Assembly (NCBI GenBank): GCA_964522195.1
Contig: CAZFSV010000003.1
Location: 29,575-93,574, forward strand
Origin: an uncultured Candidatus Saccharibacteria bacterium
GTDB lineage: Bacteria; Patescibacteriota; Minisyncoccia; Phycocordibacterales; UBA9973
Length of the DNA stretch: 64,000 nucleotides
Reading direction: 5' to 3'
The notes under the pieces: generated by a model
Told to the model about the DNA's origin: nothing
The model's input: only the letters and a program-made list of their open reading frames with translations
Databases searched by the model: none
Shown: positions 1,804 to 36,110 of the stretch, piece by piece
How positions within the stretch are numbered: position 1 is the first letter of the stretch
Layout: each line of letters opens with the position of its first letter
Translations under genes and position numbers: made by a program

Positions 1804-1845
1804 AAAAACTTTATTTTTATTTTCTAAAAGTGTTATAATTATATT

Positions 1846-2379
1846 GTGTTTATAAAACCTGAAGAAATTTTAAAATATTTAGATTTACATAAAGATATGG
1901 TCTTAGTTGATTTAGGAGCTGGGACTGGATTTTATTCTATTTTAGCAGCAAAATTTTTACCTGAAGGTACAGTTTATGCTATTGATATAAATAATGATTT
2001 TCTAAAAACCATTAATCAGAAAGCTCGAGATTTACACTTAGATAATATTAGAACAGTGGTAGGGGATTTAGAGGAATCTTATGGTAGTAAATTAAACGAC
2101 AATATTGCTGATAAAATAATTATTTCAAATATGTTTTTTCATATTAAAAATAAAGAAATTTTTTTTAAAGAAATAAATCGTATTTTAAAAAAAGGAGGAC
2201 AGGTATTGTTTGTTGATTATCATCCTAACTCATTAATTTTCGGTAAATTACATAAAAATCTTTTGCCAAAAGAAGAAATAATGGATTTGTTTCAAAAAAA
2301 TCATTTTTCTTTTAATAAAGAAATTTTTGCAGGAGAGCATCATTATGCTATTATTTTTAATAAGGATTTTAAAATATGA
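1846..2379 (+). CDS. class I SAM-dependent methyltransferase
   Basis: VLVDLGAGTGFYS glycine-rich SAM-binding motif. It uses a GTG start just after a TGTTATAAT extended -10 (possibly leaderless). Its stop overlaps the start of the next gene. Confidence 0.6.
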   Translation: MFIKPEEILKYLDLHKDMVLVDLGAGTGFYSILAAKFLPEGTVYAIDINNDFLKTINQKARDLHLDNIRTVVGDLEESYGSKLNDNIADKIIISNMFFHIKNKEIFFKEINRILKKGGQVLFVDYHPNSLIFGKLHKNLLPKEEIMDLFQKNHFSFNKEIFAGEHHYAIIFNKDFKI

Positions 2380-3665
2380 AAAATTTTCAATTAGTTTTAG
2401 TTATAATTTTTATTTTTGGTGGAATTTTAGGAATTTTAGTTTTTGCTGGTTTTATAAATTTAGATGATACTGCTGTAAATAAACAATTTTCTGGAACTGT
2501 TAAGGTTTGGGGTAGTATTCCTGGTTCAGTTATGGCACCTTTAATTGAAGATCTTAATAAAAATAAAACTTATAATATTAATTACTATTTTATAAACCCT
2601 AATACTTTTAATGAAGAATTACTTGAAGCTATTGCTTTGGGTCAAGGTCCAGATTTATTTTTAGTTTCTAATGATTCTATTTATGAACATATTAATAAAA
2701 TTTCAGTAATACCTTATACTAATTATCCTTTAGTAAACTTTAAAAATAATTTCGTGCAAGCAAGTGATGTTTTTTTAGTTAATGAAGGTGCGCTCGCTCT
2801 ACCTTTAGTTGTTGACCCATTAGTTCTTTACTATAATAGAAGTATTTTAGACTCAAATGGTACAGTTTTTCCACCTTATTTTTGGGAAGATTTAGAGGAT
2901 TATTCAGAAAAATTTACTAAAAAAGATGAAGCAGGACAAATAGAAAGGAGTGCTTTTGCTTTAGGTGTTTTCGATAACATCAATCACTCAAAAGATATTT
3001 TGTCGGCTATGTTTCTACAAACAGGTAATCCTATAATTCAAAAAGCAAAATACCTGTTTGAAAGTGTTTTGATTGCTAATTTAGATAACCAGAATAACAC
3101 AGCTCAAGCACTAGATTTTTATACAAGCTTTTCTAATCCTTTGAAGGATAATTATTCTTGGAATAAATCTTTTCCGAATTCGCTCGATATGTTTAGTAAA
3201 GAAGATTTAGTTTTTTATTTTGGTTTAGCAAGTGATTTTAAAATTTTAATAAATAAAAATCCAAATCAAAATTTTCAAATAGCAGAATTACCTCAATATA
3301 AAAACACTCAAAAAGCAACCTATGCTAAAGTTTTAGGGGTAGCTATGTCTAATTTCAGTAAGAATCAAGGGGCTGCATTTGATGCTATGTATTCTATGTC
3401 TGAGTCTAGCTTTGTAGGTCAAATTAGTAAAATAGAGAATTTGCCACCTGCCCGTAGAGATTTATTAAATCAAGGTTCTGCGAATTCGTATTTACCAGTA
3501 TTTTATTCTTCGGCTTTGTTCGCTAAAAGTTGGCTAGATCCTTCTTTTAGAGATACAAATATTGTTTTTAGGGCTATGGTTGATCAGGTTTTATCTAATG
3601 AAAGAGATGCAATTGAATCAATTACTGCAGCAAATAATCGTATTAATATTTTATTTAGAAATTAA
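2376..3665 (+). CDS. membrane-anchored extracellular solute-binding-protein-like protein (SBP family 1-like)
   Basis: An N-terminal TM/signal anchor is followed by a periplasmic-binding-protein-like pattern (VKVWGS...PDLFLV...YYNRSIL...TWEDL). No ABC permease or ATPase lies adjacent. Confidence 0.35.
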   Translation: MKNFQLVLVIIFIFGGILGILVFAGFINLDDTAVNKQFSGTVKVWGSIPGSVMAPLIEDLNKNKTYNINYYFINPNTFNEELLEAIALGQGPDLFLVSNDSIYEHINKISVIPYTNYPLVNFKNNFVQASDVFLVNEGALALPLVVDPLVLYYNRSILDSNGTVFPPYFWEDLEDYSEKFTKKDEAGQIERSAFALGVFDNINHSKDILSAMFLQTGNPIIQKAKYLFESVLIANLDNQNNTAQALDFYTSFSNPLKDNYSWNKSFPNSLDMFSKEDLVFYFGLASDFKILINKNPNQNFQIAELPQYKNTQKATYAKVLGVAMSNFSKNQGAAFDAMYSMSESSFVGQISKIENLPPARRDLLNQGSANSYLPVFYSSALFAKSWLDPSFRDTNIVFRAMVDQVLSNERDAIESITAANNRINILFRN

Positions 3666-3668
3666 ATT

Positions 3669-4028
3669 ATGAAATTTATAACAACTTTTTTATTCATCTT
3701 TATTTTACCAATTACTAGTTTTGGAGCTGGTTTAGTATCTTGTGATGGGGTTACAGTAAAATGTGACTATGATGCTTTTATTGAATTAGTTAATAATGTT
3801 ATAAAATTTATCATGGTTAATCTAGCCTTACCTTTAGCTGCTATTGCTTTTGCTTATGCAGGATTTTTATTTTTAACTTCAGCTGAAAATCCAGGTCAAA
3901 GAACTCAAGCTAAAAGTATATTTACAAATGTACTTATTGGTCTTTTGTTAATTGGAACCGCTTTCCTTTTAGTAAAATTAGTCTTAGAGATTTTAAAATA
4001 CAAAAACGCTGGATCTCTTGGTTTTTAG
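3669..4028 (+). CDS. small secreted two-TM protein, VirB2/TrbC-pilin-like topology (subfamily A)
   Basis: Signal peptide, then two hydrophobic helices separated by ENPGQRTQAK. The motif Y.GF.F.T...NP.....AK....VIG is shared with the next gene. Confidence 0.45.
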   Translation: MKFITTFLFIFILPITSFGAGLVSCDGVTVKCDYDAFIELVNNVIKFIMVNLALPLAAIAFAYAGFLFLTSAENPGQRTQAKSIFTNVLIGLLLIGTAFLLVKLVLEILKYKNAGSLGF

Positions 4029-4052
4029 AATTAAAATAGTTATAATTTATAT

Positions 4053-4427
4053 ATGAAAAATTTATTTATTAAAAATTTGCAAAAATATTTCTTGATTTTT
4101 ACTTTCTTGCTTTTACCTTTAGTTTCTTTAGCTGATGGTACTCAGCCAAGTGGAGGAACCACAACCCTAAAAAATCCTTTAGAATATGAAACCATAAATG
4201 AATTTCTTAAAGCCATAGTTGAAGGTGTACTTAAATTAGGTATTCCTATTATTGTGCTTGCTATTATTTATTCTGGATTTTTATTTGTGACTGCTTTAGG
4301 TAATCCAACTAAATTAGAGAAAGCAAAAGAAGCCTTTCTTTATACAGTTATAGGCGCAGCTATTCTTCTGGGGTCTTGGGGCCTTGCTCAATTAATATCA
4401 GAAACAATTATTCAAATTAGTAAATAA
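4053..4427 (+). CDS. small secreted two-TM protein, VirB2/TrbC-pilin-like (subfamily A paralog)
   Basis: Same topology and motif as 3669..4028 (IYSGFLFVTALGNPTKLEKAKEAFLYTVIG). Confidence 0.45.
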   Translation: MKNLFIKNLQKYFLIFTFLLLPLVSLADGTQPSGGTTTLKNPLEYETINEFLKAIVEGVLKLGIPIIVLAIIYSGFLFVTALGNPTKLEKAKEAFLYTVIGAAILLGSWGLAQLISETIIQISK

Positions 4428-4442
4428 TTATATATAAAAAAT

Positions 4443-4901
4443 ATGAAAAACCTTAAATACAAATTTATAAATCTAGCTTTTATTCTTTTGTTTAGTGTTA
4501 TGCCTTTGATGTCTTTCGCTCAATTAGGTACTGATCTAGGGGCTGATGATAATGTTGATTATTATAATGGTAATACCTCACCTTCCTCATCTTCTTCTAG
4601 TAATTTGAGTTGCTCTGTTGGTCAAGAACCTACAATAGCTAGTATTTTTGATTATATGCTTTGTATTATAAACCGATCTATAATTCCTTTAATATTCGGC
4701 TTAGCTACTTTATTATTCATTTGGGGTGTAGTTAAATTTGTATTAAATACAGATAATGAAAGTGAAAGAGAAAAAGGTAAGGAATTCATGATTTGGGGAA
4801 TTATAGCTCTTACAGTCATGATAACTGTTTGGGGAATTGTAAATTTGCTTGGTAGTAGTTTTGGCTTAGATACAAAATATATACCATCCGTAAAACCTTA
4901 A
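4443..4901 (+). CDS. small secreted two-TM protein, VirB2/TrbC-pilin-like (subfamily B)
   Basis: Signal peptide, a variable Ser-rich N-region and a conserved C-terminal module IIPLIFG...WGVVKF..N.DNESEREKGKEFMIWGIIALTVMITVWGIVN. Bases 4758..4840 are identical to 5158..5240. Confidence 0.45.
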   Translation: MKNLKYKFINLAFILLFSVMPLMSFAQLGTDLGADDNVDYYNGNTSPSSSSSSNLSCSVGQEPTIASIFDYMLCIINRSIIPLIFGLATLLFIWGVVKFVLNTDNESEREKGKEFMIWGIIALTVMITVWGIVNLLGSSFGLDTKYIPSVKP

Positions 4902-4905
4902 TTGT

Positions 4906-5301
4906 ATGAAAAATTTTAAATATAAATTTTTAAATGTTTTATTTATAGCCTTACTTTTGTTTACTGATAATATTGCTTTTGCTCAAAATTCTAATAACTC
5001 TTGTTCTGTTTCTAAAGCAGGAGCAAAAACAACTTTTAAGAGTTTATTAGAATATTTTACTTGTATTATTAATTCCTCTATTATTCCTTTTTTATTTGCT
5101 ATTGCTATTATTGCTTTTCTGTGGGGTGTAGTCCAGTTTTTCTTAAATGGAGAGAACGAAAGTGAAAGAGAAAAAGGTAAGGAATTCATGATTTGGGGAA
5201 TTATAGCTCTTACAGTCATGATAACTGTTTGGGGAATTGTGGCTATTGTGGGAGGAAGTTTTGGCTTTGAGGTTGATGTTATTCCACAGGTGGGTCTATA
5301 A
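4906..5301 (+). CDS. small secreted two-TM protein, VirB2/TrbC-pilin-like (subfamily B paralog)
   Basis: Shares an 83-nt perfect identity with the previous gene across the C-terminal TM module. Confidence 0.45.
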   Translation: MKNFKYKFLNVLFIALLLFTDNIAFAQNSNNSCSVSKAGAKTTFKSLLEYFTCIINSSIIPFLFAIAIIAFLWGVVQFFLNGENESEREKGKEFMIWGIIALTVMITVWGIVAIVGGSFGFEVDVIPQVGL

Positions 5302-5442
5302 ATTGCTTTATTTTAAATAACCCTATGATATAATTTAATTAACCTAGTATTTAGGAAATAGAAAAGGTCGATATTCAAAAATAAATAAAATTAAAAATTA
5401 TCAGTTAATTTCTTTAAAAAGAAATAAATTTAAATAAAAAAT

Positions 5443-5880
5443 ATGAAGAAAAAATTAATTAGTTTAGGTTTAGTAACAAGTTTAGTTTTAATGTTTGCAA
5501 TGTTTGCTTTACCAGTTGCTACTACTTTTGCGCAAGCACAACAAAATGTTGAAGGAGATTGTGCTTCTATAAATGAAGCTAACCCTTTGCAAGTTTTCTT
5601 GTGTAGAATTGCATTGCTTCTAAACTCAGCAATACCTGTTATGATTACTCTTGCTGTAGTTTACTTTATTTGGGGTGTTATTACTTATGTTATTGCTGAA
5701 GAAGAAGAAGCTAAAACAAAAGGTAGAGATAAAATGATTTGGGGTATTATAGGACTTGCTGTTATCGTTTCTGTTTGGGGTCTTGTGAATTTCTTGAAAG
5801 GTTTCGTTGGAATCGGAGATTCTAATGTTGTTAATATTCCTTGTATTCCAGGTCCAGGTATTACTTGTCCACAACAATAA
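5443..5880 (+). CDS. small secreted two-TM protein, subfamily B paralog
   Basis: Signal peptide plus the ...KGRDKMIWGIIGLAVIVSVWGLVNFL module. Confidence 0.4.
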   Translation: MKKKLISLGLVTSLVLMFAMFALPVATTFAQAQQNVEGDCASINEANPLQVFLCRIALLLNSAIPVMITLAVVYFIWGVITYVIAEEEEAKTKGRDKMIWGIIGLAVIVSVWGLVNFLKGFVGIGDSNVVNIPCIPGPGITCPQQ

Positions 5881-5887
5881 ACTTAAA

Positions 5888-6220
5888 ATGTATTTACTTT
5901 TATTTTTATTACCAAATATTGCCCTAGCTTCATTTGATTCATTTTTAAATAATGTAAATAATTTAATAGTGAATCCATTGATAAATTTCTTGTTTGCAGT
6001 TGCTTTAGTTTTTTTCCTTTATGGATTGTTTAACTTTATAGCAAATGGAGATAATGAAAGTATTCGCACTGAAGGTAAAAGTCATATGCTATACGGAATT
6101 ATTGGTATGGTTATTATGATGGGGGTTTGGGGAATTACAAATTTACTTATCAATACTTTAGAAATTGAAGGTATTGATCCGGAAAAAGGTGAAGTAAATT
6201 TAGAGGATTTTCCAGAATAA
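5888..6220 (+). CDS. small secreted two-TM protein, subfamily B paralog
   Basis: ATG at 5888 (MYLLLFLLPNIALASF...). The track's 5807 start overlaps the previous gene in another frame. It carries the ...NESIRTEGKSHMLYGIIGMVIMMGVWGITNLL module. Confidence 0.4.
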   Translation: MYLLLFLLPNIALASFDSFLNNVNNLIVNPLINFLFAVALVFFLYGLFNFIANGDNESIRTEGKSHMLYGIIGMVIMMGVWGITNLLINTLEIEGIDPEKGEVNLEDFPE

Positions 6221-6226
6221 AAATAA

Positions 6227-6262
6227 ACTAAAAACTCTCTTTTCAGAGAGTTTTTAGTTTGT
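6227..6262 (+). terminator. intrinsic terminator after the pilin-like array
   Basis: aaaaactctct-tttc-agagagttttt hairpin plus a T-run. Confidence 0.55.
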
Positions 6263-6281
6263 GGATTTTAATATAAAAATA

Positions 6282-6318
6282 AAAAAAGGTTTCGCTTAAG
6301 CGAAACCTTTTTGGGTTT
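6282..6318. terminator. bidirectional terminator hairpin
   Basis: aaaaaaggtttcgc-ttaa-gcgaaacctttttgg. It serves the + array and the convergent minus-strand operon. Confidence 0.55.
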
Positions 6319-6929
6319 TAATAATAAACAATTTCCACCGCTGTTGTGTTATCGTTTATTTTTTCAAAAATGTACTTATTTGTACCAAATTTTTTAGGGT
6401 AGTAATTATCTACCCCGGGGCAATCTTCCTTTGGTTGTTCTCCGGGAGCTGTATATAATACACAGCCACCTTTTGGATAAAATTTGAATGGTGGAGTAAG
6501 GTCTTTTTCAATAATCTTACTATTACCAAAATACAAATACTCACTCCGAGGTCTTTGTGAAATATTTTGATTATTAGTTTTTGTTGTGTCATTTTTCAAA
6601 GAATTTTTAATATCATTTCCTTTGAAATAGATTATTAAAAAAAAGAAACAACTAAGATATAAAGCCCAAGCATAGTCCCATTTCCAAATGTATTGGAACA
6701 GAGAAAGAATTACCATAAAAATCAACACAAACCATAATTCCCACATTTTCTCTGGTCCAATTATGTAATACAGCAAACCAAACCAAAATGTGTTCCACAT
6801 CATGGCCGAAAAAAGCATTTGGATATCGTATTTTTTTACTCCACCTGTATTTAAATTTTGATTTTTTAAAAAAGCAAAATAAATAATTACAAGTAGTACA
6901 AGAATACTTATTCCTAAAAAAATTTCCAT
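6318..6929 (-). CDS. hypothetical polytopic membrane protein
   Basis: Several TM helices followed by a Cys-containing soluble tail. It sits downstream of the SPFH gene, so it could be an NfeD-like partner. Confidence 0.3.
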   Translation of the reverse strand: MEIFLGISILVLLVIIYFAFLKNQNLNTGGVKKYDIQMLFSAMMWNTFWFGLLYYIIGPEKMWELWFVLIFMVILSLFQYIWKWDYAWALYLSCFFFLIIYFKGNDIKNSLKNDTTKTNNQNISQRPRSEYLYFGNSKIIEKDLTPPFKFYPKGGCVLYTAPGEQPKEDCPGVDNYYPKKFGTNKYIFEKINDNTTAVEIVYY

Positions 6930-6955
6930 TTTTTTTGTTTTTAAAAGTTAAAGAA

Positions 6956-7876
6956 TTAGATACCAATATTGGTATTTGTGTTTCCTAAAACCAAAGTCCC
7001 TTGATGTTTTTCAATTCCCTGACTTTGTTTTAAACTCATAACAGCTGCCAAAATCTCTTTTGGATTTGCTCCTGTTTTTTGTAATCTATCAATCAAAGAA
7101 TCTATTTCAGCCACCGCTTGCTTACTTCTGTAGTTAGCATCCGCATCCGCATCAATTCTACGAGCTTCTGCGCGTAAATCCGCTATGGCTTTTGCATTAG
7201 CTGCCTCCAGTAAAGCGTTATCAGCACTATATTCACTGATATTAAAAGCAGTTGCAATTGCTCCCGTGTTTAATTTCAAAATTTCATTAAGTTTACTTAA
7301 GTCTCCTGAAATAGGGTCATTAAGTAAATTTTTGAAAAAATTAGATCCTTCACCTTTGTCTTCATTAATAAATTCAGTTAAATTGTCAATGTTTTTAACC
7401 AAATCATTAACCTTTGAGGAAATTATAGTTATTAAAGCCCTGTAATTACCTTTTAAGTTAAAAACAAATATTTTAGGTTCTTCAAATTTTAAAATCACGT
7501 TTACTAAAAGACTAATTTTTGTTCTGTCTTTTAGCTCTACGTCGCTCATTAAGATCGGCAGTGTTACAATCTTGCGAAGAGTGCCTGTTTCAAAGTTTTC
7601 TTCGTGAGAAATCCAGGTCTTTGGATCTTCTGGTTTTCTGTCCGGATTTAGCTTATATTTGTTTATCACAAAATTATGAACTTTGTGAATAAACCTAAAG
7701 CCAACCCAATAATACCCAAAAATATGGAAATGTTTATTAGGGTCGTCACCATCTATTGTTTTTACCCAGGTTTCTCCTTGAACTATAAACTTATAGTTGC
7801 CGGATTCAACTGTAGTGAAATTGTAGGACATGATTGCAAGAATTAAAATCCAAATACAAATAATTGTTAGTGTCAT
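6956..7876 (-). CDS. SPFH/band-7 (stomatin/prohibitin-like) domain membrane protein
   Basis: N-terminal TM. The core VELKDRTKISLLVNVILKFEEPKIFVFNLKGNYRALITIISSKVNDL fits the SPFH pattern V.TKD..V.VD.VV.YRV.DP. A C-terminal coiled coil (AIADLRAEARRIDADA) is present. Confidence 0.5.
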   Translation of the reverse strand: MTLTIICIWILILAIMSYNFTTVESGNYKFIVQGETWVKTIDGDDPNKHFHIFGYYWVGFRFIHKVHNFVINKYKLNPDRKPEDPKTWISHEENFETGTLRKIVTLPILMSDVELKDRTKISLLVNVILKFEEPKIFVFNLKGNYRALITIISSKVNDLVKNIDNLTEFINEDKGEGSNFFKNLLNDPISGDLSKLNEILKLNTGAIATAFNISEYSADNALLEAANAKAIADLRAEARRIDADADANYRSKQAVAEIDSLIDRLQKTGANPKEILAAVMSLKQSQGIEKHQGTLVLGNTNTNIGI

Positions 7877-8018
7877 TTTTTAAAATTTTAAAAAGTTAAT
7901 AAATAGTTTTTGGAAGAATAGAATAGGGAATTATTCCGCCGAAAACTATTTATTAACTTAAAAATCTCTTTGTCAAAGTACTATTTTCTTTGTATATAAT
8001 ATCATAAAATAACAAAAA

Positions 8019-8048
8019 AGTCAATCTTTTTGATTGACTTTTTTGTGT
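8019..8048. terminator. terminator for the minus-strand gene 8066..8905
   Basis: aaaaaagtcaatc-ttttt-gattgactttttt, a perfect 13-bp palindrome flanked by A/T runs. Confidence 0.6.
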
Positions 8049-8065
8049 TTAATTATAATTATTTA

Positions 8066-8905
8066 TTAAGCGTGTTTTAGAGGTTGATTGATTTCTCTTT
8101 CTGTTACCCAGAGTTTTCTGAAAAGTAATACTCCTAAGAATACAAGAACGAAAAGCATTAACCATCCAAGGAAACTATCAGGCATAAAACCTTTCACACT
8201 ACTTGATACACTTGCTGTTAATTTTGTATTTGAATCATTATCATTTGTAGTCGCAGATGCTAAACAATTAGTATTTTCTGCTACAGCTACTTTTTTAGGT
8301 TCTTCTTTTTTAACGACTGTTTTTGCTGGTGTTTTCTTTGCTACTGTTGTGTTAGCTGTTTTTGTAGTACTTGCTTTTGTTGTTGTAGCACTTTTTACTG
8401 TTCCTGTTTTTCCTTCAAGTAAAGTTATGATTTTAGGATTTGAGAACACTCCACCTTCAGTACTCGGATTAACAACTGTCACAATATATTTTCCTGGTGT
8501 TTTAGTATCTCCACTATCAAGACGCATTTTTAATTGATTTGCACTTACAAAAGTAGTAGGGCGGTCTTGACTGTTAAAGCGTGCAATTGAGTCTGGTTTG
8601 AAACCTGTACCATAGATTGTAATAGTTTTTATATCATCCCCAGTGTAAGCTTCTTCTGGATTTATTGAATATATGGTAGGTACTTTGTTTTTGTCTAAAA
8701 CATTAGGATTAAAGTTTGAATTGTTATTTGTATTATTGCCTGTTGTGTTTATAGTACTAGTTCCATTACATGGTCCGTCACAATAAGTATAAGCTCCTAG
8801 TGTTAGATAAGCTTCAGCTGCAGTAGGAGAAAGAAAAGCTGAAAATACAAGGAAACCAAAAGCTAAAAATCCAAATATTAAATTGTTTGTATTTTTATTA
8901 TTCAT
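8066..8905 (-). CDS. surface-anchored protein with an IPT/TIG-like Ig domain
   Basis: Signal peptide, an IPT/TIG-like segment (PTIYSINPEEAYTGDDIKTITIYGTGFKPDSIARFN...YIVTVVNP), a Thr/Lys-rich linker and a C-terminal TM anchor. Confidence 0.45.
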   Translation of the reverse strand: MNNKNTNNLIFGFLAFGFLVFSAFLSPTAAEAYLTLGAYTYCDGPCNGTSTINTTGNNTNNNSNFNPNVLDKNKVPTIYSINPEEAYTGDDIKTITIYGTGFKPDSIARFNSQDRPTTFVSANQLKMRLDSGDTKTPGKYIVTVVNPSTEGGVFSNPKIITLLEGKTGTVKSATTTKASTTKTANTTVAKKTPAKTVVKKEEPKKVAVAENTNCLASATTNDNDSNTKLTASVSSSVKGFMPDSFLGWLMLFVLVFLGVLLFRKLWVTEREINQPLKHA

Positions 8906-8986
8906 ACCTATAGTATAGCATATTTAAATATATTTGTCAAGTCTTTGTTTTTTCTTATTTTTTATGTATAATTTCTTTATCCTTTT

Positions 8987-9068
8987 GCCTGAGTGGCGGA
9001 ATTGGTATACGCGCACGACTTAAAATCGTGTCTCGCAAGGGATGTGGGTTCGACCCCCACCTCAGGCA
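8987..9068 (+). tRNA. tRNA-Leu (anticodon TAA)
   Basis: Acceptor GCCTGAG/CTCAGGC, anticodon loop CTTAAAA, long variable arm, T-loop TTCGACC. Confidence 0.85.
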
Positions 9069-9167
9069 CAAAATATTAAATATTTTTAGGTATGCGCCCA
9101 TAGCTGTTTTGGTAGGTCGTTAGATAAATAGTAAAATAAAAGTTTAATTTAAAAATAAATATAATAT

Positions 9168-9240
9168 GCGCCCATAGCTCAGCTGGTAGAGCAGATCCCT
9201 CTTAAGGATAAGGTCCAAGGTTCGATCCCTTGTGGGCGCA
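9168..9240 (+). tRNA. tRNA-Lys (anticodon CTT)
   Basis: Acceptor GCGCCCA/TGGGCGC, D-arm TAGCTCAGCTGGTAGAGC, anticodon loop CTCTTAA, T-arm CAAGGTTCGATCCCTTG. Confidence 0.8.
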
Positions 9241-9345
9241 CAAAGCATGTTATGCTTTGTGCGAATAGCAGGCACGATTGATGCCGAGACGGGGTAGCGA
9301 GATTTTTCAGCAGAAAAATACTTGTGACTACAAAGTAATTATATA
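9241..9345 (+). repeat. tRNA-adjacent mini-element, copy 1 (after tRNA-Lys)
   Basis: A hairpin overlaps the tRNA 3' end (cgcacaaagcat-gtt-atgctttgtgcg). It is followed by atagcaggca...gccgagacggggtagcgagatttttcagcagaaaaatacttgtgac, which is about 80% identical to 9556..9605. Confidence 0.4.
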
Positions 9346-9363
9346 TGTTAGTATATAAATTTT

Positions 9364-9445
9364 GGGTAAGTGGCGGAATTGGTATACGCGCTGGTCTTAG
9401 GAACCAGTGCCGCAAGGCTTGAGGGTTCGAGTCCCTCCTTACCCA
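9364..9445 (+). tRNA. tRNA-Leu (anticodon TAG)
   Basis: Acceptor GGGTAAG/CTTACCC, anticodon stem CTGGT/ACCAG with loop CTTAGGA, long variable arm. Confidence 0.85.
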
Positions 9446-9449
9446 CAAA

Positions 9450-9627
9450 AATTCACAAAAGACAGCTAAATGCTGTCTTTTGTGTTATTTTTTTGTGTGG
9501 TAAAGGAGAGGCGAGAAAGACGGAGGCGGTATACAAGAGGAGCACAGCGAGTGCTTGTGGCCGAGTCGGGGTCGCGAAAATTTTCTTTAGAAAATTATTT
9601 GTGACCGAGTCCCTCCTTACCCACAAA
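9450..9627 (+). repeat. tRNA-adjacent mini-element, copy 2, ending in a 22-nt exact direct repeat of the tRNA-Leu(TAG) 3' end
   Basis: cgagtccctccttacccacaaa occurs at 9428..9449 (inside the tRNA) and again at 9606..9627. The internal motif gccgagtcggggtcgcgaaaattttctttagaaaattatttgtgac is shared with copies 1 and 3. Terminator hairpins lie on both sides. Confidence 0.55.
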
Positions 9628-9669
9628 TTTTAAAAAACAGTGATTTTTATCACTGTTTTTTAAATAATG

Positions 9670-9741
9670 AGGCCTGGGGCGGAATCGAACCGCCGTGTGG
9701 AGATTTTGCAGATCTCTGCCTTACCACTTGGCGACCAGGCC
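9670..9741 (-). tRNA. tRNA-Cys (anticodon GCA)
   Basis: Reverse complement GGCCTGGTCGCCAAGTGGTAAGGCAGAGATCTGCAAAATCTCCACACGGCGGTTCGATTCCGCCCCAGGCCT. Confidence 0.8.
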
Positions 9742-14228: not shown

Positions 14229-16919
14229 ATGCCACCATTAAATAAATTTACAACTAAAGCAAAAGAAGCAATTAAAAAGGCTCACGAACTCGCTATAGAG
14301 CGGGGTCAGAACCACGTTTCTTCAATGCATTTATTAGGAGCCTTATTGCTTCAAGAAGAAAGTATAGTTTATTCTATTTTAGATAGACTAGAAGTGGATA
14401 CAATTTTATTAACTGATTCTGTTTTAGAATATATAGAAAATCCTGAAAGCCGTAGTACTTTATCTCCTTCATATCAAATTTATTTAAATCCAGACTTAGC
14501 TCAAATAATTGAAAACTCTTTGAAAGTTACAGAATACACAAAAGATGAGTTTGTTTCTACGGAGCATTTATTTATTTCTATGCTTGAAGTAAATGGTGAA
14601 GCAAAAGATATGCTTTCAAAATTTAGAATAAACAAAGAAATGGTTTTGAAGGTGTTATTAGAATTAAGAGAAAATGATTCTGGTGGAGCATCTGAGCCAA
14701 AAAAGTTTAAATTAATTTTAAAGTATACTAGAAATTTAACTCGATTAGCGCGTGAAGATAAATTAGACCCTGTAATAGGTCGTGACAATGAAATAATTCG
14801 TTTAATGCAAATACTTTCTCGTCGTACAAAAAATAATCCTATTTTAATAGGCGAAGCAGGAACAGGCAAAACTGCTGTTGTGGAAGGGCTTGCCCTCCGG
14901 ATTGTAAAAGGCATGGTACCAGAATCTTTGAAAGACAAAGAATTAGTTTCTCTTGATTTAGGTTCTCTTATCGCTGGTACAAAATACAGAGGAGAATTTG
15001 AAGAAAGATTAAAAGGAATAATGAAAGAAATAGAAAAAACAGACGGAAAAATTATTCTTTTTATTGATGAAATACATACTATTGTTGGAGCTGGTGGAGG
15101 AGAAGGAACCTTGGACGCTTCTAATATGTTAAAACCAGCTTTAGCTCGCGGTGAATTGCGGGCTATTGGTGCTACAACAATAAAAGAATATCAAAAGTAT
15201 ATAGAAAAAGACCCAGCCTTGGCTCGTCGTTTTCAACCTATTTATGTTGAAGAACCAAATATTGAAGATGCTATCGCTATTTTGCGTGGACTTAAAGAAC
15301 GTTATGAATTATTTCACGGAGTTCGTATAACAGATGATTCAATTTTAGCTGCGGTGAATTTATCTTCAAGATATATTACAAATCGCTTCCTTCCAGATAA
15401 AGCTGTGGATTTGATAGACGAAGCTTCATCTTCGCTTAAAATTTCACTTGAAAATAAACCACCTATTTTAGAAGAAGCAAATAGAAAAATTATGCGTTTT
15501 GAAATAGAAAAAGAAGCTTTAAAAAAAGAACTTAATTTAACCGAAGACAAAGAAAAAAATAAAGAGATTAAAGATCGTATTAAGAATATTGATATGGAGA
15601 TAGCTAATTTGTTTGAAAAAACTAAAGAGCTTGAGCTTAAATGGCAAAACGAAAGAAGTATAGTTTTAGAAATTAGACAAATTAAAAAAGATTTGGAAGA
15701 TTCTCGCATAGAAGCAGAAAATGCAGAAATGAAATCCGATTTATCTTTAGCTGCAGAGATACGTTATGGTAGAATACCAAATTTGAAAAAAGAATTAGAT
15801 AGTAAATTAATTAAATTAAAGAAATTACAGAAAAATCGTAGAATCTTAAAAGAAGAAATTACTGAGGAAGATATCGCTGAAGTTGTTGCAAGGTGGACAG
15901 GAATACCTGTTTCTAAAATGCTTGAAGAAGAAAAAGAAAAATTAAGTAAAATAGAAGATCAATTAAAAAATAGAGTTATTGGTCAAAACGAAGCTATTTC
16001 TCGTGTTGGTGAGGTTATTCGTCGTTCTCGTGCAGGTATATCAGATCCTAATCGCCCAATAGGTTCTTTCATTTTCTTGGGTCCTACTGGAGTAGGTAAA
16101 ACTGAACTTACTAAAGCCTTAGGGGAATTTATGTTTAATGACGAGAAAGCTATTATTAGAGTTGATATGTCAGAATATATGGAGCGTCATAGTGTTTCTA
16201 AACTTGTAGGTTCTCCTCCAGGATATGTTGGTTATGATGAAGCTGGTCAATTAACCGAAGCTGTACGTCATCGCCCTTATTCTATAGTTTTATTTGATGA
16301 AATAGAAAAAGCTCACCCGGAAGTATTTAATATATTGCTTCAAGTTCTCGATGAAGGACGAATGACAGATGGTAAAGGTAGAGTAGTTAATTTTAAAAAT
16401 ACTATCATAATTATGACTTCTAATATTGGATCTCAACATATAGAAAAAATGGAATCTATTGGATTTTCTAATAATTCTGAAAAAGATGATTATATTCATA
16501 CTAAAGATAAAGTTATGGAATCATTAAAAGAACATTTCCGTCCAGAATTTTTAAATCGTATAGATGAAATTATTTTATTTGATATCTTGTCTAAAGAATC
16601 AATTAAAGAAATTGTAAACATTAGAATTAAAACTATCAAAGAAAGAATTTTAGCCAAAGGAATTAATTTAGAAATTGATGAAAAAGGTTTAGAGTATCTA
16701 GCAGAGGAGGGGTATAATCCACATTATGGAGCAAGACCATTAAACAGACTTATTCAAACTAAAATTTTAAATCCTGTAGCTGGATATATGATTTCAAATG
16801 AAGTAAAAAAAGGAGATAGTGTATTTATTACAACTGATAAAAATAAAAATTTATCTATTACTATAAAAAAGGGAAAAGTTAAAAGTAATTTAAAAATTAA
16901 AAGCAGACTAAAAGCTTAA
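14229..16919 (+). CDS. clpB: ATP-dependent chaperone ClpB
   Basis: An 896-aa protein with a Clp N domain, two AAA modules (GEAGTGKT; GPTGVGKT) and a long middle coiled coil. Confidence 0.9.
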
Positions 16920-16921
16920 AT

Positions 16922-16955
16922 TAAAAAATCCCTCACACAACATGAGGGATTTTTT
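16922..16955. terminator. bidirectional terminator (clpB / tRNA-Tyr)
   Basis: aaaaaatccctca-cacaaca-tgagggatttttt. Confidence 0.6.
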
Positions 16956-16960
16956 AATTG

Positions 16961-17044
16961 TGCGCCGGGAAGGATTCGAACCTTCGTAGGGCAAAGCCCG
17001 ACAGATTTACAGTCTGTTGTAATTGACCACTCTACCACCGACGC
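16961..17044 (-). tRNA. tRNA-Tyr (anticodon GTA)
   Basis: Reverse complement GCGTCGG...CAGACTGTAAATCTG...long variable arm...GGTTCGAATCC...CCGGCGCA. Confidence 0.8.
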
Positions 17045-17107
17045 ATTTACAATATATAAAATAACATATTTTTATTTTTTTTGCATCTTTTTAAAGACAT
17101 AGTTTTT

Positions 17108-17143
17108 TTGTTTGTGTTTTTTTAAAAATGTGTTATTGTGAAT
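17108..17143 (+). promoter_or_regulatory. promoter, repeated at 18011..18046
   Basis: ttgtttgtgtttttttaaaaatgtgttattgtgaat, with extended -10 TGTGnTATTgTgAAT. A near-identical 36-mer lies ahead of typA. Confidence 0.45.
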
Positions 17144-17180
17144 TTGAATATTTTTTCTTTCACAATTTAATTTTGAAATC

Positions 17181-17966
17181 ATGAATAGTGATATTAGTTT
17201 CCAAACATCTCAAGCTGCTTTGGCTTTTTATAAGCAAACAGCACAGGATAATGTTGATAAATTAAAAAACAATCCTTACCCTGGTAGAGGTATCGTTTTA
17301 GGTGTTAGTGAAGACGCTAAGTCAGTTTTCCAAATTTATTGGCTCATGGGTAGAAGTGAAAACTCTAAAAATAGAGTTATGAAATTTACTAATACCCCAG
17401 GTATAATTCAAACTGACTTTTTCAATCACAAAAAAGCAGGGGATCCTTCTCTTGTAATATACAATGCTATGCTAGAAGAGGTACATCTTATGCCTGAAGC
17501 TGTTCATTGTTTTGCTGTAAGTAATGGTAACCATACAAAAACTTTATTAAAAAAACACCCTATGGTAAAATTTTATTCCAATTGGTCCTATGAACCAGAT
17601 GAACCTAATTTTACCCCAAGAATCGGAGGTCTCACTGTGATTAGTCAAAACAAGTTATTAAAAAATTTTTTAACTATTATTTCAAAATCAAAAAATTCTT
17701 TTGAAAAAAAGTTTGATCTTTTTGAATTAAAAGATATTGCTGGTGGTGGATATTGTATTCATACTTATGCAGGAGAAGATGAGCCCTTACCTTCTTTTGA
17801 AGGCAAACCTTACCTTTTACCGTTATTAGGTGAATGTGAAGAAATTGTAAATTTTTATTGGGATTTATTAAATCCTGATTACCGTGTTTCGCTTGTGGTA
17901 AAAAAGATTTCAATTCAAGAACCTGCTAATGTAGAAGTTTTGATTAAAAATCAAAACCAAAATTAA
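17181..17966 (+). CDS. IMP cyclohydrolase-like protein (PurO family-like)
   Basis: YPGRGIVLGVSEDAKSVFQIYWLMGRSENSKNR resembles the PurO signature (GRI.AVG...YRVSSRSFPNR). This is a recalled similarity, not an alignment. Confidence 0.35.
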   Translation: MNSDISFQTSQAALAFYKQTAQDNVDKLKNNPYPGRGIVLGVSEDAKSVFQIYWLMGRSENSKNRVMKFTNTPGIIQTDFFNHKKAGDPSLVIYNAMLEEVHLMPEAVHCFAVSNGNHTKTLLKKHPMVKFYSNWSYEPDEPNFTPRIGGLTVISQNKLLKNFLTIISKSKNSFEKKFDLFELKDIAGGGYCIHTYAGEDEPLPSFEGKPYLLPLLGECEEIVNFYWDLLNPDYRVSLVVKKISIQEPANVEVLIKNQNQN

Positions 17967-18010
17967 ATTAATATTTTTTTAAAGCCCGTTTAACTTTGCT
18001 AAACGGGCTT

Positions 18011-18046
18011 TTGTTTGTGTTTTTTTAAAAATGTGCTATTATAAAT
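18011..18046 (+). promoter_or_regulatory. promoter repeat ahead of typA
   Basis: ttgtttgtgtttttttaaaaatgtgctattataaat. Confidence 0.45.
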
Positions 18047-18121
18047 ATGTTGAATTTTAAGCCTTTGGGCTTTTTTTCTTTAAAACAAACTTATTAAATT
18101 ATTAATTAGAAATATTATTTT

Positions 18122-19930
18122 ATGGATATTAGGAATATTGCAATTATCGCTCACGTAGACCACGGCAAAACAACTTTAACAGATGCTTTGATGAAGCAAA
18201 ATGGAGCACTTGTAGATGAAGGTGTTTCAATGGATTCTAATGATTTAGAAAAAGAAAGAGGTATTACTATTTACTCAAAAAATACTTCGATTACTTATAA
18301 AGGTACAAAAATAAATATAGTAGATACTCCAGGTCACGCTGACTTTGGTTCTGAAGTAGAACGCGTATTGCGTGCTATTGATTCTGTGTTGCTTTTAGTT
18401 GACGCTGTAGAAGGTCCTATGCCTCAAACTCGTTTTGTATTAAAAAAGTCTTTGGAACTTGGCCTTAAACCAATAGTTGTGATAAATAAAATAGACAAAC
18501 CAGCTTCTGATATTGCAAGAGTTCATGATGAAATTTTAGAATTATTTTTAGAATTAGGAGCGACGGACGAGCAAGCAGATTTTAAAACTATTTATGCTAT
18601 TGGTAGAGAAGGAAAAGCTTTTAAAAATATAGGCGATGATTCAAAAGACTTGTCTCCATTAATTGATTTGATTTTAGAAGAAGTTCCAGTTGCTTCAAAT
18701 AAAGAAGCGGGAGATTTACAAGCTCAAGTCTTTAATTTAGGTTATGATAATTTCTTGGGTAGAATGGCTATTGCTCGTATCTATGGTGGTACCATAAAAT
18801 CTAGTTCTCAAGTTGTAGTGAAAAATGAAAATGGTTCAAGAAACGGTAAAATCACTAAACTTTTTATTTTTGAAGGAATAAATAGAAAAGAAGTTAGTGA
18901 AGCTTCTGTTGGTGATATTGTTTTGCTTGCTGGTATTCCTGATATTTTTATTGGAGAAACTATTTGTGGAAATGAAAATGTAGAAGAAATGCCACATATT
19001 GCAATTGATGAACCAACACTATCTCTAAATTTCTTGGTTAATGATTCAACTTTTGCAGGACGCGAAGGTAAATTTGTAACTTCAAGACAAATTAAAGAAA
19101 GATTAGAAAAAGAATTAGAAATAAACGTTGGTCTTAAGGTAGATTTTTCTCCTAATCAAGAAAGTAATAATAGTGGACCTTCTTTCTTTAAAGTTTATGG
19201 TAGAGGAGAATTACATATTGCAGTTTTACTTGAAAATATGAGAAGAGAAGGTTTTGAAATGCAAGTTTCTCAACCTGAAGTTATTATTAAAACAGATGAG
19301 AGTGGAAACAAAACAGAACCTTATGAAGAATTAGTGATAGACGTTCCAACAGAGTTCTCAGGAGCTGTAATAGAAAAAATCGGAAAAAGAAAAGGTTTAA
19401 TGAAAGACATGCAAGAGAAAGAAAATGTTTCTCGTATTGTTTTTGAAATACCAACAAGAGGGCTTTTGGGCTATAGAGGTGAATTTATTATTGATACAAA
19501 AGGTGAGGGAATTATGTCTTCTCGTGTTATTGGCTTTAAAGATTATGCTGGTGAAATAAAGAAAAGAGAATATGGTTCTATGACTTCCATGATTTCTGGT
19601 AAAGCAGTTGCCTTTGCCCTTGCAAATTTACAAGAACGTGGTATACTATATATAGACCATGGAACAGAAGTGTATGAAGGAATGGTTATTGGTAATGTTC
19701 TTAAGGGTGAAGATATGTCTGTTAACCCTATAAAAGGAAAGCAGCTTACAAATATGAGAGCGTCTGGATCTGATGATGCAATTGTATTAAAACCTGCTTT
19801 TACTTTAAATATTGAAAGAGGACTTGAAGTTATGAGTCAAGATGAATACTTAGAAGTTACTCCTAAATCAGTTCGCTTGCGTAAAAAATATTTAACAGAA
19901 TTAGATAGAGTTCGTGCAAATAGAAAATAA
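18122..19930 (+). CDS. typA: translational GTPase TypA/BipA
   Basis: IAIIAHVDHGKTTLTDALM, EF-G-like domains and a length of 602 aa. Confidence 0.85.
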   Translation: MDIRNIAIIAHVDHGKTTLTDALMKQNGALVDEGVSMDSNDLEKERGITIYSKNTSITYKGTKINIVDTPGHADFGSEVERVLRAIDSVLLLVDAVEGPMPQTRFVLKKSLELGLKPIVVINKIDKPASDIARVHDEILELFLELGATDEQADFKTIYAIGREGKAFKNIGDDSKDLSPLIDLILEEVPVASNKEAGDLQAQVFNLGYDNFLGRMAIARIYGGTIKSSSQVVVKNENGSRNGKITKLFIFEGINRKEVSEASVGDIVLLAGIPDIFIGETICGNENVEEMPHIAIDEPTLSLNFLVNDSTFAGREGKFVTSRQIKERLEKELEINVGLKVDFSPNQESNNSGPSFFKVYGRGELHIAVLLENMRREGFEMQVSQPEVIIKTDESGNKTEPYEELVIDVPTEFSGAVIEKIGKRKGLMKDMQEKENVSRIVFEIPTRGLLGYRGEFIIDTKGEGIMSSRVIGFKDYAGEIKKREYGSMTSMISGKAVAFALANLQERGILYIDHGTEVYEGMVIGNVLKGEDMSVNPIKGKQLTNMRASGSDDAIVLKPAFTLNIERGLEVMSQDEYLEVTPKSVRLRKKYLTELDRVRANRK

Positions 19931-21105: not shown

Positions 21106-22524
21106 ATGCTTAATTATGCTTTAATTCTTGGATCGATTGTTTTAATATTTTTTTATCCAAAATTTTGGTTTTTGCCTTTTGTGTTTATTTTTTTTAATGC
21201 AACAATTATTGCTTGGCAAGGATTATCTCTGTTTTATTGGGTACCAACAATAGCTTCTTTTTTATTGGGATTCTTTTTCCCATTTTTTTGGTTATTTGCA
21301 GCAGTGTTAGTTTTTGGAAGATTAACTTGGTTTTTATGGCTTCATTATATTCAACAACATTTCATCGCCGGTATAGATTTTGTTTTGCTTGAAATAATTC
21401 CACCTCGTGAAGTAGAAAGAAATCCAAAAGCTATGGAACTTTTTTTTACGAACGCCCTTTATCACTGGAGCATTAAAGGTGGACGTGAAGAATATTGGCA
21501 AGGTGCTGTTTGGCTTTGGTTTTCACTTGAAATTGCTTCTATAGAAGGACAAGTGCATTTTTATATTCGCACTCCAACTAGAATAAGAGGACTTATAGAA
21601 ACTCAAATGTATGCTCAATATCCTCAAGCTCAAATTAAAGAAGTACCTGATTATACTTTAGCGATCGATGAAATTTCTCCTAAAAGTGATTGGCAACTTT
21701 GGGGTTGTGAATGGAATTTAGAAAAACATCATGCTTATCCTATTAAAACTTATGTTGATTATGGACTCGATAAAGACCCGGATGAAGAATTAAAAATAGA
21801 TCCACTTTCGTCTATTATTGAACTATTTGCAGCATTAAAAAAAGACGAACAAATGTGGCTTCAGATTTTAGTTAGACCATCTAAACTAGAATTTACTTCA
21901 CCCGGTTCTAGAGAAAAACATGACTGGGTACAAGAATCTCGCTTAGAGCTTGAAAGATTGCTTGAAAAATTTGCTCGAATGAATATTATTGAAGGTGATA
22001 CCGTTCAAAGAGTTCGTCCTCCTTATACTATGGAGAAGGAAGCAAAAGGTATCGGTGATAAAATACAAAAAATTGGTTTTGATGTTGGAATTAGAACTTG
22101 TTATGTTGCAAAGAAATCAGCTTGGGATTTAAACAATCGCCGTAATATTCGTTTGGTTTTTAGGCAATACTCAAATCCTCAATTAAATAGTTTAGTTCGT
22201 ACTAATAGTACACAGGCGGATGCTTATGGTGGTTTAATTACTGTGTTAAATAGTGAACAAGTTATGGTTTTATCAAACAGAATGCTAGGTGAGTACAGAG
22301 ATAGATCTTTCTTTCATGATCCAATGAAAAAACAACTTTTAACTGATTTGTCTTGGCCACTGTCACCTTTGCTTTTTATGTCTTTTAAACCTTCACCTGT
22401 TTATGTTTTGAATGTAGAAGAAATAGCTAGTCTTTGGCACTTTCCAGGTCAAATTCTTAAAATTCCTACTCTTGAAAGAGTTGAAAGTAAAGAAGCTTCA
22501 CCACCTACAAATTTACCTATATAG
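21106..22524 (+). CDS. hypothetical membrane protein (N-terminal multi-TM plus ~350-aa soluble domain)
   Basis: Hydrophobic N-terminal helices. No recognisable catalytic motif. Confidence 0.3.
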   Translation: MLNYALILGSIVLIFFYPKFWFLPFVFIFFNATIIAWQGLSLFYWVPTIASFLLGFFFPFFWLFAAVLVFGRLTWFLWLHYIQQHFIAGIDFVLLEIIPPREVERNPKAMELFFTNALYHWSIKGGREEYWQGAVWLWFSLEIASIEGQVHFYIRTPTRIRGLIETQMYAQYPQAQIKEVPDYTLAIDEISPKSDWQLWGCEWNLEKHHAYPIKTYVDYGLDKDPDEELKIDPLSSIIELFAALKKDEQMWLQILVRPSKLEFTSPGSREKHDWVQESRLELERLLEKFARMNIIEGDTVQRVRPPYTMEKEAKGIGDKIQKIGFDVGIRTCYVAKKSAWDLNNRRNIRLVFRQYSNPQLNSLVRTNSTQADAYGGLITVLNSEQVMVLSNRMLGEYRDRSFFHDPMKKQLLTDLSWPLSPLLFMSFKPSPVYVLNVEEIASLWHFPGQILKIPTLERVESKEASPPTNLPI

Positions 22525-35608: not shown

Positions 35609-36110
35609 TATGCCTTATTTAGATAAAAAAGGTAGATTGTATAAATATGGAGAATTCTTTCCTTTTGAAATATCTCCATTGTCTTATAATCAAAGTATGG
35701 TTCAAGATTATTTTCCTCTAGAAAAAGAAGAAATTTTATACAAGGGTTATCTTTATTCACCCATAAATAGAAAAGAATTTAAAATAACTAAAAAATGCAT
35801 AGATTTAGAAGATGATATTAGTTTAGTTGATGATTCTATTTTAAAAGAAGTTTTGGGTTGTAAAAATTGTAGTAAAGCTTTTAAGTTGATAGAAAAAGAA
35901 TTTTTGTTTTATAAAAGATTTAATTTACCAATTCCTAGAAATTGTAATTTTTGCAGAATAGAAAAATTAATTAAATCTGTAAATCCACCAAGATTTTATA
36001 ACCGTAAATGTATGAAAGAAGGATGCAATAATGAATTTGAGACTAGTTATTCTCCAGAGAGACCGGAAATAGTGTATTGTGAAAAATGTTATCAGAGTGA
36101 GGTGTATTAG
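35577..36110 (+). pseudogene. C-terminal 177-aa piece of the same split Cys-rich gene
   Basis: MVEKIKKHMYDMPYLDKKGRLYKYGEFFPFEIS aligns with ...EDMTNNPYIDSKGRIYKYGEFFPVEFS of the 569-aa paralog. 395+177 aa is about 569 aa. Confidence 0.5.

Follow-up and report, generated by a model that had tools for sequence, protein, structure and literature searches.

The question raised by this locus is what a tandem run of six small genes, each encoding what looks like an exported hairpin protein, contributes to a reduced Patescibacteria genome: a repertoire of interchangeable surface variants, or a set of distinct parts of one structure. The genes occupy positions 3669-6220 of the 64-kb stretch of DNA analysed here (hereafter the window), which is AT-rich (about 29% G+C) and carries the kind of housekeeping genes common in reduced genomes (gyrA, infB, clpB, typA, ribosomal proteins and alaS). 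We consider it probable, with appreciable room for doubt, that the six products are pilin-like subunits of a Patescibacteria type IV secretion system (T4SS) and that they build one heteromeric envelope structure whose variable ends are turned outward. All six open reading frames (ORFs) lie on one strand, separated by spacers of 24, 15, 4 and 7 nt, the exception being the 141 nt between g4 and g5:

3669..4028, + strand: g1, a type A1 pilin-like protein of 119 aa with a signal, a short Cys-x6-Cys loop and two transmembrane (TM) helices
4053..4427, + strand: g2, a type A2 pilin-like protein of 124 aa, of the six the nearest to classical TrbC/VirB2
4443..4901, + strand: g3, copy 1 of type c, 152 aa, with a Ser-rich low-complexity mature N-terminus, a conserved Cys pair ahead of TM1 and a tail of the ...IPSV type
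4906..5301, + strand: g4, copy 2 of type c, 131 aa, tail of the ...IPQV type; the sister species represented by locus L010 has this duplication too
5443..5880, + strand: g5, a type d pilin-like protein of 145 aa with a Cys pair in its C-terminal tail (IPCIPGPGITCPQQ)
5888..6220, + strand: g6, a type e pilin-like protein of 110 aa from the ATG at 5888, with a very short N-terminal hydrophobic leader of 14 aa

The mechanically called ORF of g6 begins at TTG 5807. This start, which would provide a long VirB2-like leader, was rejected as it overlaps g5 by 74 nt and is unconserved in orthologues; in orthologues the start lies only a few nt from the stop of the gene before, which makes ATG 5888 the probable start of g6. 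Rfam and tRNA scans of 3669-6220 gave no match.

Based on Kyte-Doolittle hydropathy, all six proteins comprise an N-terminal hydrophobic segment with a terminal small-x-small motif, a variable polar stretch and two TM-like helices with a short charged loop between them. The initial annotation had described six same-strand genes with a signal and a two-helix hairpin, and this topology is found in each of the six ORFs, the leader of g6 being weak. Leader cleavage and helices are heuristic calls from hydropathy and the -3/-1 rule, which place the putative cleavage sites of g1 to g6 at SFG/A, SLA/D, SFA/Q, AFA/Q, TFA/Q and ALA/S. Conserved Cys pairs are confined to predicted outside segments, i.e. 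ahead of TM1 and in the C-terminal tail of type d, and their restriction to predicted non-membrane segments fits the predicted topology, in which the N-terminus and the C-terminus are outside and the charged loop is inside. The segment from the leader to the first conserved Cys spans about 0 to 75 aa across homologues. An AlphaFold2 (AF2) model of g4 (24 homologues) has helices at residues 4-27, 44-80 and 85-118, with a mean predicted local distance difference test score (pLDDT) of 66.9 overall and of 76-85 across the hairpin.

The assignment to a VirB2/TrbC-like family, likewise put forward in the initial annotation, was examined with profile hidden Markov models (HMMs) and stands. All six proteins score above the gathering threshold of 26.6 bits for PF18895 (T4SS_pilin), with 33.6 bits for g1, 37.3 for g2, 40.0 for g3, 36.0 for g4, 39.0 for g5 and 34.8 for g6; the g6 score derives from the longer TTG-start ORF, and the matched stretch lies inside the ATG-start protein. 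PF04956 (TrbC/VirB2, gathering threshold 27.9 bits) is passed by g2 only (35.0), with g1 (18.4), g5 (17.0), g6 (13.0) and g4 (10.3) below the threshold and no match for g3. Most A2 orthologues carry a precomputed PF04956 match. The array also falls within the published definition of a VirB2 array in Patescibacteria, which, in Quinonero-Coronel et al. (2025, Microb Genom, PMC12102498), calls for at least two pilin genes in tandem or one gene apart, a PF04956/PF18895 i-Evalue <0.001 and >50% profile coverage: the six genes are adjacent, with E = 4e-8 to 4e-10 and profile coverage of 72-97%. At E ≤ 0.001, a profile of the g3-g6 subfamily matched 11,646 cluster representatives in a collection of 1.84 billion proteins, and many of these matches have two or three hairpin modules per chain. 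Homologues come from metagenome-assembled genomes (MAGs) of Minisyncoccia, Paceibacterota and Nomurabacteria, and some orthologues are named 'pilin' by NCBI. Judged by profile scores and hydropathy, the six proteins are VirB2/TrbC-superfamily hairpin proteins (Pfam T4SS_pilin) in family membership as well as in topology pattern.

To place the array among its relatives we used 80 species-level, Nomurabacteria-like loci from a genome collection, 66 of them with complete arrays. Orthology resolves five types, namely A1 (g1), A2 (g2), c (g3 and g4), d (g5) and e (g6). For every type the orthologue bit scores beat the within-genome paralogue scores, and the order gyrA, methyltransferase, solute-binding protein (SBP), A1, A2, c, d, e is kept in 66/66 complete arrays. 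Since orthologues outscore paralogues, correspond one to one and stand in the same order, the array is ancient; on this comparison of sequences it is an old fixed set and not a recent expansion. The five types look non-redundant, more like the subunits of one assembly. An earlier division into two subfamilies, genes 1-2 and genes 3-6, is roughly right, although orthology gives five types. Copy number in related genomes, for which a check had been proposed, varies but is nearly fixed, with five pilin genes in 55 complete arrays and six in 11. Differences in gene content among L005, L006 and L007 were dropped as instances of copy-number variation, being due to 100-N scaffold gaps.

In about half of the species the gene at the c position is a two-module fusion. 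In the fused third gene a complete d-like hairpin module is followed by the c module in one chain (for example L001 10001-10678 and L003 10001-10693); the wider family includes three-module proteins, multi-module examples being P0152 and P0170, and the window has two separate c genes instead.

These two c genes share the tract that had first drawn attention to the locus, when 4758-4840 was seen to equal 5158-5240 and gene conversion was proposed:

4758..4840, + strand: gene-conversion tract, g3 copy, encoding the loop and TM2 (ESEREKGKEFMIWGIIALTVMITVWGIV), 83/83 identical to the g4 copy
5158..5240, + strand: gene-conversion tract, g4 copy, 83/83 identical to 4758-4840

The final 288 nt of g3 and g4 form a gapless alignment with 70% identity, in which the flanks of the tract are in register at 61% (left, 144 nt) and 52% (right, 61 nt) identity. 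A run of at least 83 was reached in 0/200,000 permutations. Third codon positions differ at 0/27 sites in the tract vs 42/69 outside it (hypergeometric P = 3.7e-9), and amino-acid constraint cannot account for an identity with this silent-site contrast. Overall the two proteins are 51% identical. The membrane-module motif of the tract is exact in g3 and g4 only, and the g5 and g6 versions have diverged to 75% and 63% nucleotide identity over the stretch; the C-terminal module that the initial annotation described as conserved is exact in the c pair but diverged in the other two. A strain of 98.6% identity (L004), assembled independently, has the same boundaries (4757/4758 and 4840/4841), with 80/83 identity between its own copies, and a Logan assembly identical to the window (L090) ends inside the tract at window position 4787, as expected at a repeat. 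These data indicate that the 83-nt identity is real, with an assembly artefact ruled out, and gene conversion is strongly supported.

The tract recurs in another species. The closest species found (L010), with about 50% protein identity, has the same six-gene layout as the window, and its c-type pair carries a near-identical tract of its own over the same codons, 63 nt of it exact and with 93-100% identity in all seven 10-codon windows. The 3' boundary, directly after WG[IL]V, is common to both. Beyond the tract, the partner of g3 is L010-c1 (NLLG...IPSV tails) and that of g4 is L010-c2 (AI.GG...IPQV tails), and because the tails pair by copy across species the c duplication is older than the split between the window and L010. 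As L010 has its own tract and the tract identity between the two species is only about 80%, loop and TM2 have been homogenised separately in each. According to these alignments, conversion homogenises the conserved loop and TM2 independently in two species, and the exposed tails stay paralog-specific.

Long exact exchanges among array members are not general in the loci compared: an exact-repeat screen, counted after removal of overlapping ORF calls, found them in 3/80 loci only (L010, L011 and L072). In L072 a 71-nt exact exchange involves a c-module and d. In L011 the A1 and A2 genes have an exact repeat of 273 nt in common (8339-8611 and 9167-9439), comprising the leader and an N-terminal extension some 65 aa long, which is an exposed-domain exchange between two pilin types.

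Comparison of close strains shows where the proteins vary. In a 98.4% relative (L093) single-nucleotide polymorphisms (SNPs) are scattered through the region; relative to the window, its g2 protein has one leader substitution, the end of the signal peptide and the mature N-terminus are replaced, and the hairpin is identical. Between L005 and L006 all 150 differences over 9.5 kb fall within 8108-9471 (1.36 kb), an island that extends from the last bases of the SBP gene through A1 into the first part of A2, with identity in the preceding 8.1 kb and 99.9% identity in the following 6.6 kb. By these sequence comparisons the A1 gene is, in the relatives, a sharply bounded strain-level hypervariable island. 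Together with the pre-Cys segment of variable length, these cases confirm the idea of a constant anchor with a variable exposed part. The N-terminal extensions of A1, where they reach 200-400 aa, consist of repetitive, apparently strand-rich modules and Thr/Ser-rich linkers (L043 7868-9460, L078 8095-9588 and L006 8318-9499).

This variability raises the possibility of a surface repertoire, in which the proteins would be interchangeable major subunits of one fibre, diversified by duplication and conversion for evasion of host or phage or for host matching, as proposed for Anaplasma and Bartonella. The variable N-termini and C-tails are positioned like the hypervariable regions of Anaplasma VirB2 (PMC3556328) and strain-level changes cluster in exposed parts, but in the window the tract evens out the conserved module and does not extend to the variable parts. 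Arrays with five or six genes and the occurrence of module fusions would suit a repertoire, yet the five types are one-to-one orthologous and in fixed order throughout the complete arrays. The A1/A2 exchange of L011 is the kind of event that counts in its favour, against which stand the rarity of long exact exchanges and the lack of promoterless cassettes, every copy having a start codon and a leader. Because the orthology is fixed, this explanation fits less well, and we regard it as unlikely. The freely diversifying repertoire of interchangeable paralogs suggested by the initial annotation is not supported, for the same reason and because the tract homogenises, with no shuffling of variable parts.

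The anatomy of the operon is informative about how the subunits may be deployed. The following features flank or divide the array:

1831..1839, + strand: extended -10 promoter-like motif (TGTTATAAT), a motif match just past the terminator-like hairpin of gyrA (1762-1807) and 7 nt before the methyltransferase start
1846..2379, + strand: S-adenosylmethionine (SAM)-dependent methyltransferase gene, its stop overlapping the SBP start by 4 nt; a neighbour in every related locus
2376..3665, + strand: solute-binding protein (SBP_bac_1) with a putative membrane anchor (N-terminal hydrophobic segment), its stop 3 nt before g1
5326..5334, + strand: extended -10 promoter-like motif (TGATATAAT) in the 141-nt g4-g5 spacer
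5365..5370, + strand: AGGTCG leader motif downstream of the internal promoter, present in 36/45 promoter-bearing spacers of relatives
6223..6312, no strand assigned: two terminator-like hairpins (6223-6262 and 6283-6312) between g6 and a convergent minus-strand gene, marking the end of the unit

The motif at 1831-1839 is the likely start of the upstream transcription unit, in which the functional membership of the methyltransferase is uncertain. The spacer between c and d is long in 66/66 arrays (72-242 nt, median 115), whereas the other junctions are tight. TGnTAnAAT is present in 45/67 c-d spacers vs about 3 in shuffles, and the combination of promoter and AGGTCG has a single occurrence in the 64-kb window. 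Genes 5 and 6 appear to be under their own conserved predicted promoter. We infer two transcription units, with d-e separate and possibly more strongly expressed. In window 5326-5442 and about 45 related c-d spacers the leader contains (A/T)AGGTCG(C/T) with ATTATTAG-like repeats flanking it, and in some species G+C-rich hairpins such as CCGCCAGAGGCGG follow the leader motif. This stretch, for which Rfam gave no match, may be a regulatory leader.

In every related locus retrieved the gene order is gyrA, SAM methyltransferase, SBP_bac_1, pilins, convergent hypothetical/Band-7-like genes, TIG-domain protein, rbfA and infB. All of the 80 species loci are collinear with the window markers, and all retrieved contexts of family members represent one syntenic locus of a collinear Nomurabacteria-like clade. 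We propose that these genes make up the pilin portion of a chromosomal operon, vertically inherited in a Nomurabacteria-like (Paceibacteria) Patescibacterium; the operon would be laid out as promoter, methyltransferase, membrane-anchored SBP, g1-g4, internal promoter, g5-g6 and terminators. Six Sec-exported hairpin proteins would represent five ancient non-interchangeable types, with type c duplicated (g3 and g4), and would act as pilin-like subunits of a monoderm-type T4SS whose ATPase and channel genes would lie elsewhere in the genome. The subunits may form one heteromeric envelope structure, i.e. a short fibre, a conduit or a membrane base, with the conserved hairpins packed against one another and the variable mature N-termini and C-tails pointing outward. 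The conversion patch would keep the packing module of loop and TM2 identical in both c copies while selection would preserve the copy-specific exposed tails. The link to a T4SS is suggested by homology and by the situation in other classes of the phylum; heteromeric assembly and surface exposure are inferred as well, and the proteins might form a pilus.

Several observations weigh against this proposal. No VirB4, VirB6 or VirB3 was seen in the window, nor an ORF of VirB4 size besides recognisable housekeeping genes, Pfam having been run on ten neighbours only, and no T4SS genes are annotated within ±10 kb of the array in relatives with gene annotation. The search for VirB4 covered the 64-kb window and these ±10 kb. 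The array is not near a virB4 cluster (criterion about 20 genes), and the only related gene in the window, a type IV coupling protein (T4CP)-like ATPase at 39593-41047, lies 33 kb off and belongs to a class which is abundant in Patescibacteria and uncoupled from virB4. Moreover, A1 exceeds 200 aa in 20/66 species and reaches up to 530 aa, which is awkward for a tightly packed VirB2-type filament, and the putative signal of g6 is atypically short (14 aa) and lacks a basic n-region. A Foldseek search of the PDB with the g4 AF2 model gave nothing at E ≤ 0.001 (lowest E 2.3; 8dfu, the conjugation pilus of A. pernix, had 5.2), and a sequence-profile search of the PDB returned nothing relevant. As helical hairpins are poorly discriminated by either kind of search, these null results are not evidence against homology. 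To our knowledge, no pilus has been observed in any Patescibacterium.

Reported numbers give a measure of how pilin and virB4 genes are distributed in the phylum. Published counts give 2,474 virB4 genes for a set of 3,035 Patescibacteria genomes. Among 1,948 assemblies with both VirB4 and pilins, a pilin is near virB4 in 1,135 and not near it in 813, according to the array survey (PMC12102498).

The second alternative dispenses with the T4SS and takes the hairpins as exapted subunits or anchors of a membrane module with the orphan SBP, e.g. a surface capture or uptake platform, or anchors for extracellular domains. The SBP gene ends 3 nt upstream of g1 and lies directly upstream of the array in 66/66 complete arrays; this adjacency may be synteny and not coupling, because the whole gyrA-to-IF-2 neighbourhood is collinear in the clade. 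The SBP looks orphan since no ATP-binding cassette (ABC) permease or ATPase gene is recognisable nearby, though we know of no precedent for SBPs acting with two-TM hairpin proteins, which we count against the idea. The absence of annotated T4SS genes around the arrays of annotated relatives and the frequent fusion of A1 to large extracellular domains would agree with such a module, but in Saccharimonadia homologous arrays lie inside an essential T4SS cluster, as described by Wang et al. (PMC10633639). We judge a T4SS-independent module quite unlikely.

A distinct form of exaptation, distinctly improbable in our estimate, would combine the five hairpin subunits and the orphan anchored SBP in a heteromeric surface conduit or capture device that takes host metabolites, for which the distant T4SS would be optional. 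The d and e proteins would be its major subunits, expressed separately and at a high level, and A1, A2 and c SBP-linked minor or adaptor subunits with host-tuned exposed parts, and conversion would keep the packing interface compatible. It is hardly credible, and largely refuted by the HMM results, that the six are unrelated small membrane proteins (holins, bacteriocin or immunity proteins, lipoproteins) mimicking VirB2 topology, the alternative of lipoproteins or holin-like proteins already named in the initial annotation: a two-TM hairpin is a common architecture and the fold search was uninformative, but all six proteins pass curated Pfam thresholds, none has a lipobox Cys at its cleavage site, the housekeeping neighbourhood is kept across the clade, and no phage or plasmid context is apparent, with tblastn finding no match at BLAST sensitivity for g2 in 72,556 plasmids or for g4 in 50,697 phages.

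Other genes of the window and of the relatives were recorded alongside. Beside the array, on the minus strand at 6318-8905, three convergent genes are conserved across the clade; they encode a 203-aa membrane protein with no Pfam match, a protein of 306 aa with Band_7 matches, faint to clear, in its orthologues, and a secreted protein of 279 aa with a TIG domain in orthologues and a hydrophobic segment close to the C-terminus. A tRNA cluster at 8987-9741 (Leu-TAA, Lys-CTT, Leu-TAG and Cys-GCA) separates the TIG-domain gene from rbfA and explains a local rise in G+C. In L006 a reverse transcriptase (RVT_1) and a bAvd accessory gene (16504-19254), which look like a diversity-generating retroelement, take the place that rbfA-infB has in other strains, immediately past the TIG-domain surface protein that lies downstream of the array. 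Directly upstream of the soluble T4CP/TraD-like ATPase gene (39593-41047) a 569-aa Cys-rich protein with a treble-clef zinc-finger match is encoded at 37860-39569, and 2 kb upstream of it a paralogue at 34421-36110 is broken up, perhaps through a frameshift, into ORFs of 395 and 177 aa that overlap. The product of 21106-22524 (472 aa) has no Pfam match and combines several TM segments at its N-terminus with a large soluble domain. The 223-aa protein encoded at 46113-46784 has a hydrophobic segment at its N-terminus and is extremely rich in Gly and Tyr over its C-terminal half. At 50993-54373 a 1,126-aa protein is encoded that carries an LCAT/lipase-like domain, has a hydrophobic segment at either end and resembles a parallel beta-helix in its N-terminal half.

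Patescibacteria account for much of bacterial diversity, and the means by which they draw on host resources is the question touched by this locus. In the one species tested, Southlakia epibionticum, the T4SS and the pilin array are essential. The fixed set of five orthologous types in this clade speaks for a heteromeric structure rather than an antigenic repertoire. For modelling or imaging of the T4SS surface structure, the locus provides constraints in the form of a virB4-uncoupled set, predicted co-transcription with the SBP, two predicted units and a homogenising conversion limited to loop and TM2.

Among known systems, the nearest analogue for the placement of variability is found in the virB2 arrays of Anaplasma phagocytophilum, A. 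marginale and Bartonella, which likewise consist of tandem paralogues with a signal peptide and two hydrophobic helices (PMC3556328). In Anaplasma VirB2 the variability lies ahead of the N-terminal Cys and near the C-terminus, as in the window array. However, these organisms are diderm alphaproteobacteria with canonical VirB/D4 systems, their virB2 genes adjoin virB4-2, and virB2 copies number 8-15 between strains, compared with 5-6 here and types that are orthologous across species (PMC3556328). The classical pilins TrbC (RP4), VirB2 (Ti) and TraA (F) resemble the array proteins in being small, with a cleaved leader and a two-helix hairpin around a short polar loop, and g2 passes the TrbC/VirB2 HMM. 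They differ in that each system has one pilin gene, located in the T4SS operon of a mobile element, with cyclisation or acetylation of the product and a diderm envelope. The Mbov_0395 family (NF045849) of Mycoplasma integrative and conjugative elements (ICEs) shares the monoderm, reduced-genome setting, and all six proteins align over most of its 80-position model with E = 1e-5 to 5e-7. At 22.2-29.4 bits vs a curated cut-off of 40 they are not members, and the Mbov_0395 protein is ICE-borne and single-copy. Antigenic-variation cassettes of the pilE/pilS or msp2 kind have one expression site and promoterless or truncated donors, from which variable segments are moved; in contrast, all six window genes are complete, with start codon and leader, and the converted part is the conserved loop and TM2.

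The closest relatives are the VirB2-like arrays of Patescibacteria themselves, whose earlier publication the initial annotation did not take into account. Wang et al. (2023, Cell) describe a series of essential predicted pilin subunits in the T4SS cluster of S. epibionticum, a six-gene array (PMC10633639). Quinonero-Coronel et al. list 441 arrays of 2-11 pilin genes from 383 Patescibacteria assemblies, in which identity within an array averages 25% and does not exceed 54% (PMC12102498), and a 2025 review regards six sequence-divergent VirB2-like pilins as a hallmark and a pilus as an 'intriguing possibility' (PMC12857230). The window array has in common with these the phylum, PF18895 and PF04956, a chromosomal location, tandem divergent pilins of like topology and a low within-array identity. 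It differs in that the S. epibionticum array is situated in a T4SS cluster while the window array follows an SBP beside gyrA, with no T4SS cluster, and in that published arrays are most abundant in Microgenomatia and Saccharimonadia while the window array is Nomurabacteria/Paceibacteria-like. In the parts of these reports that were consulted, a virB4-distant, SBP-linked operon of five fixed types, with an internal promoter, module fusions and recurrent boundary-conserved conversion, is not described for published Patescibacteria arrays. Since the array falls within the published definition and the g3-g4 identity lies within the published range, it belongs to a kind already known from work of 2023-2025, of which the window is a new, well-resolved example.

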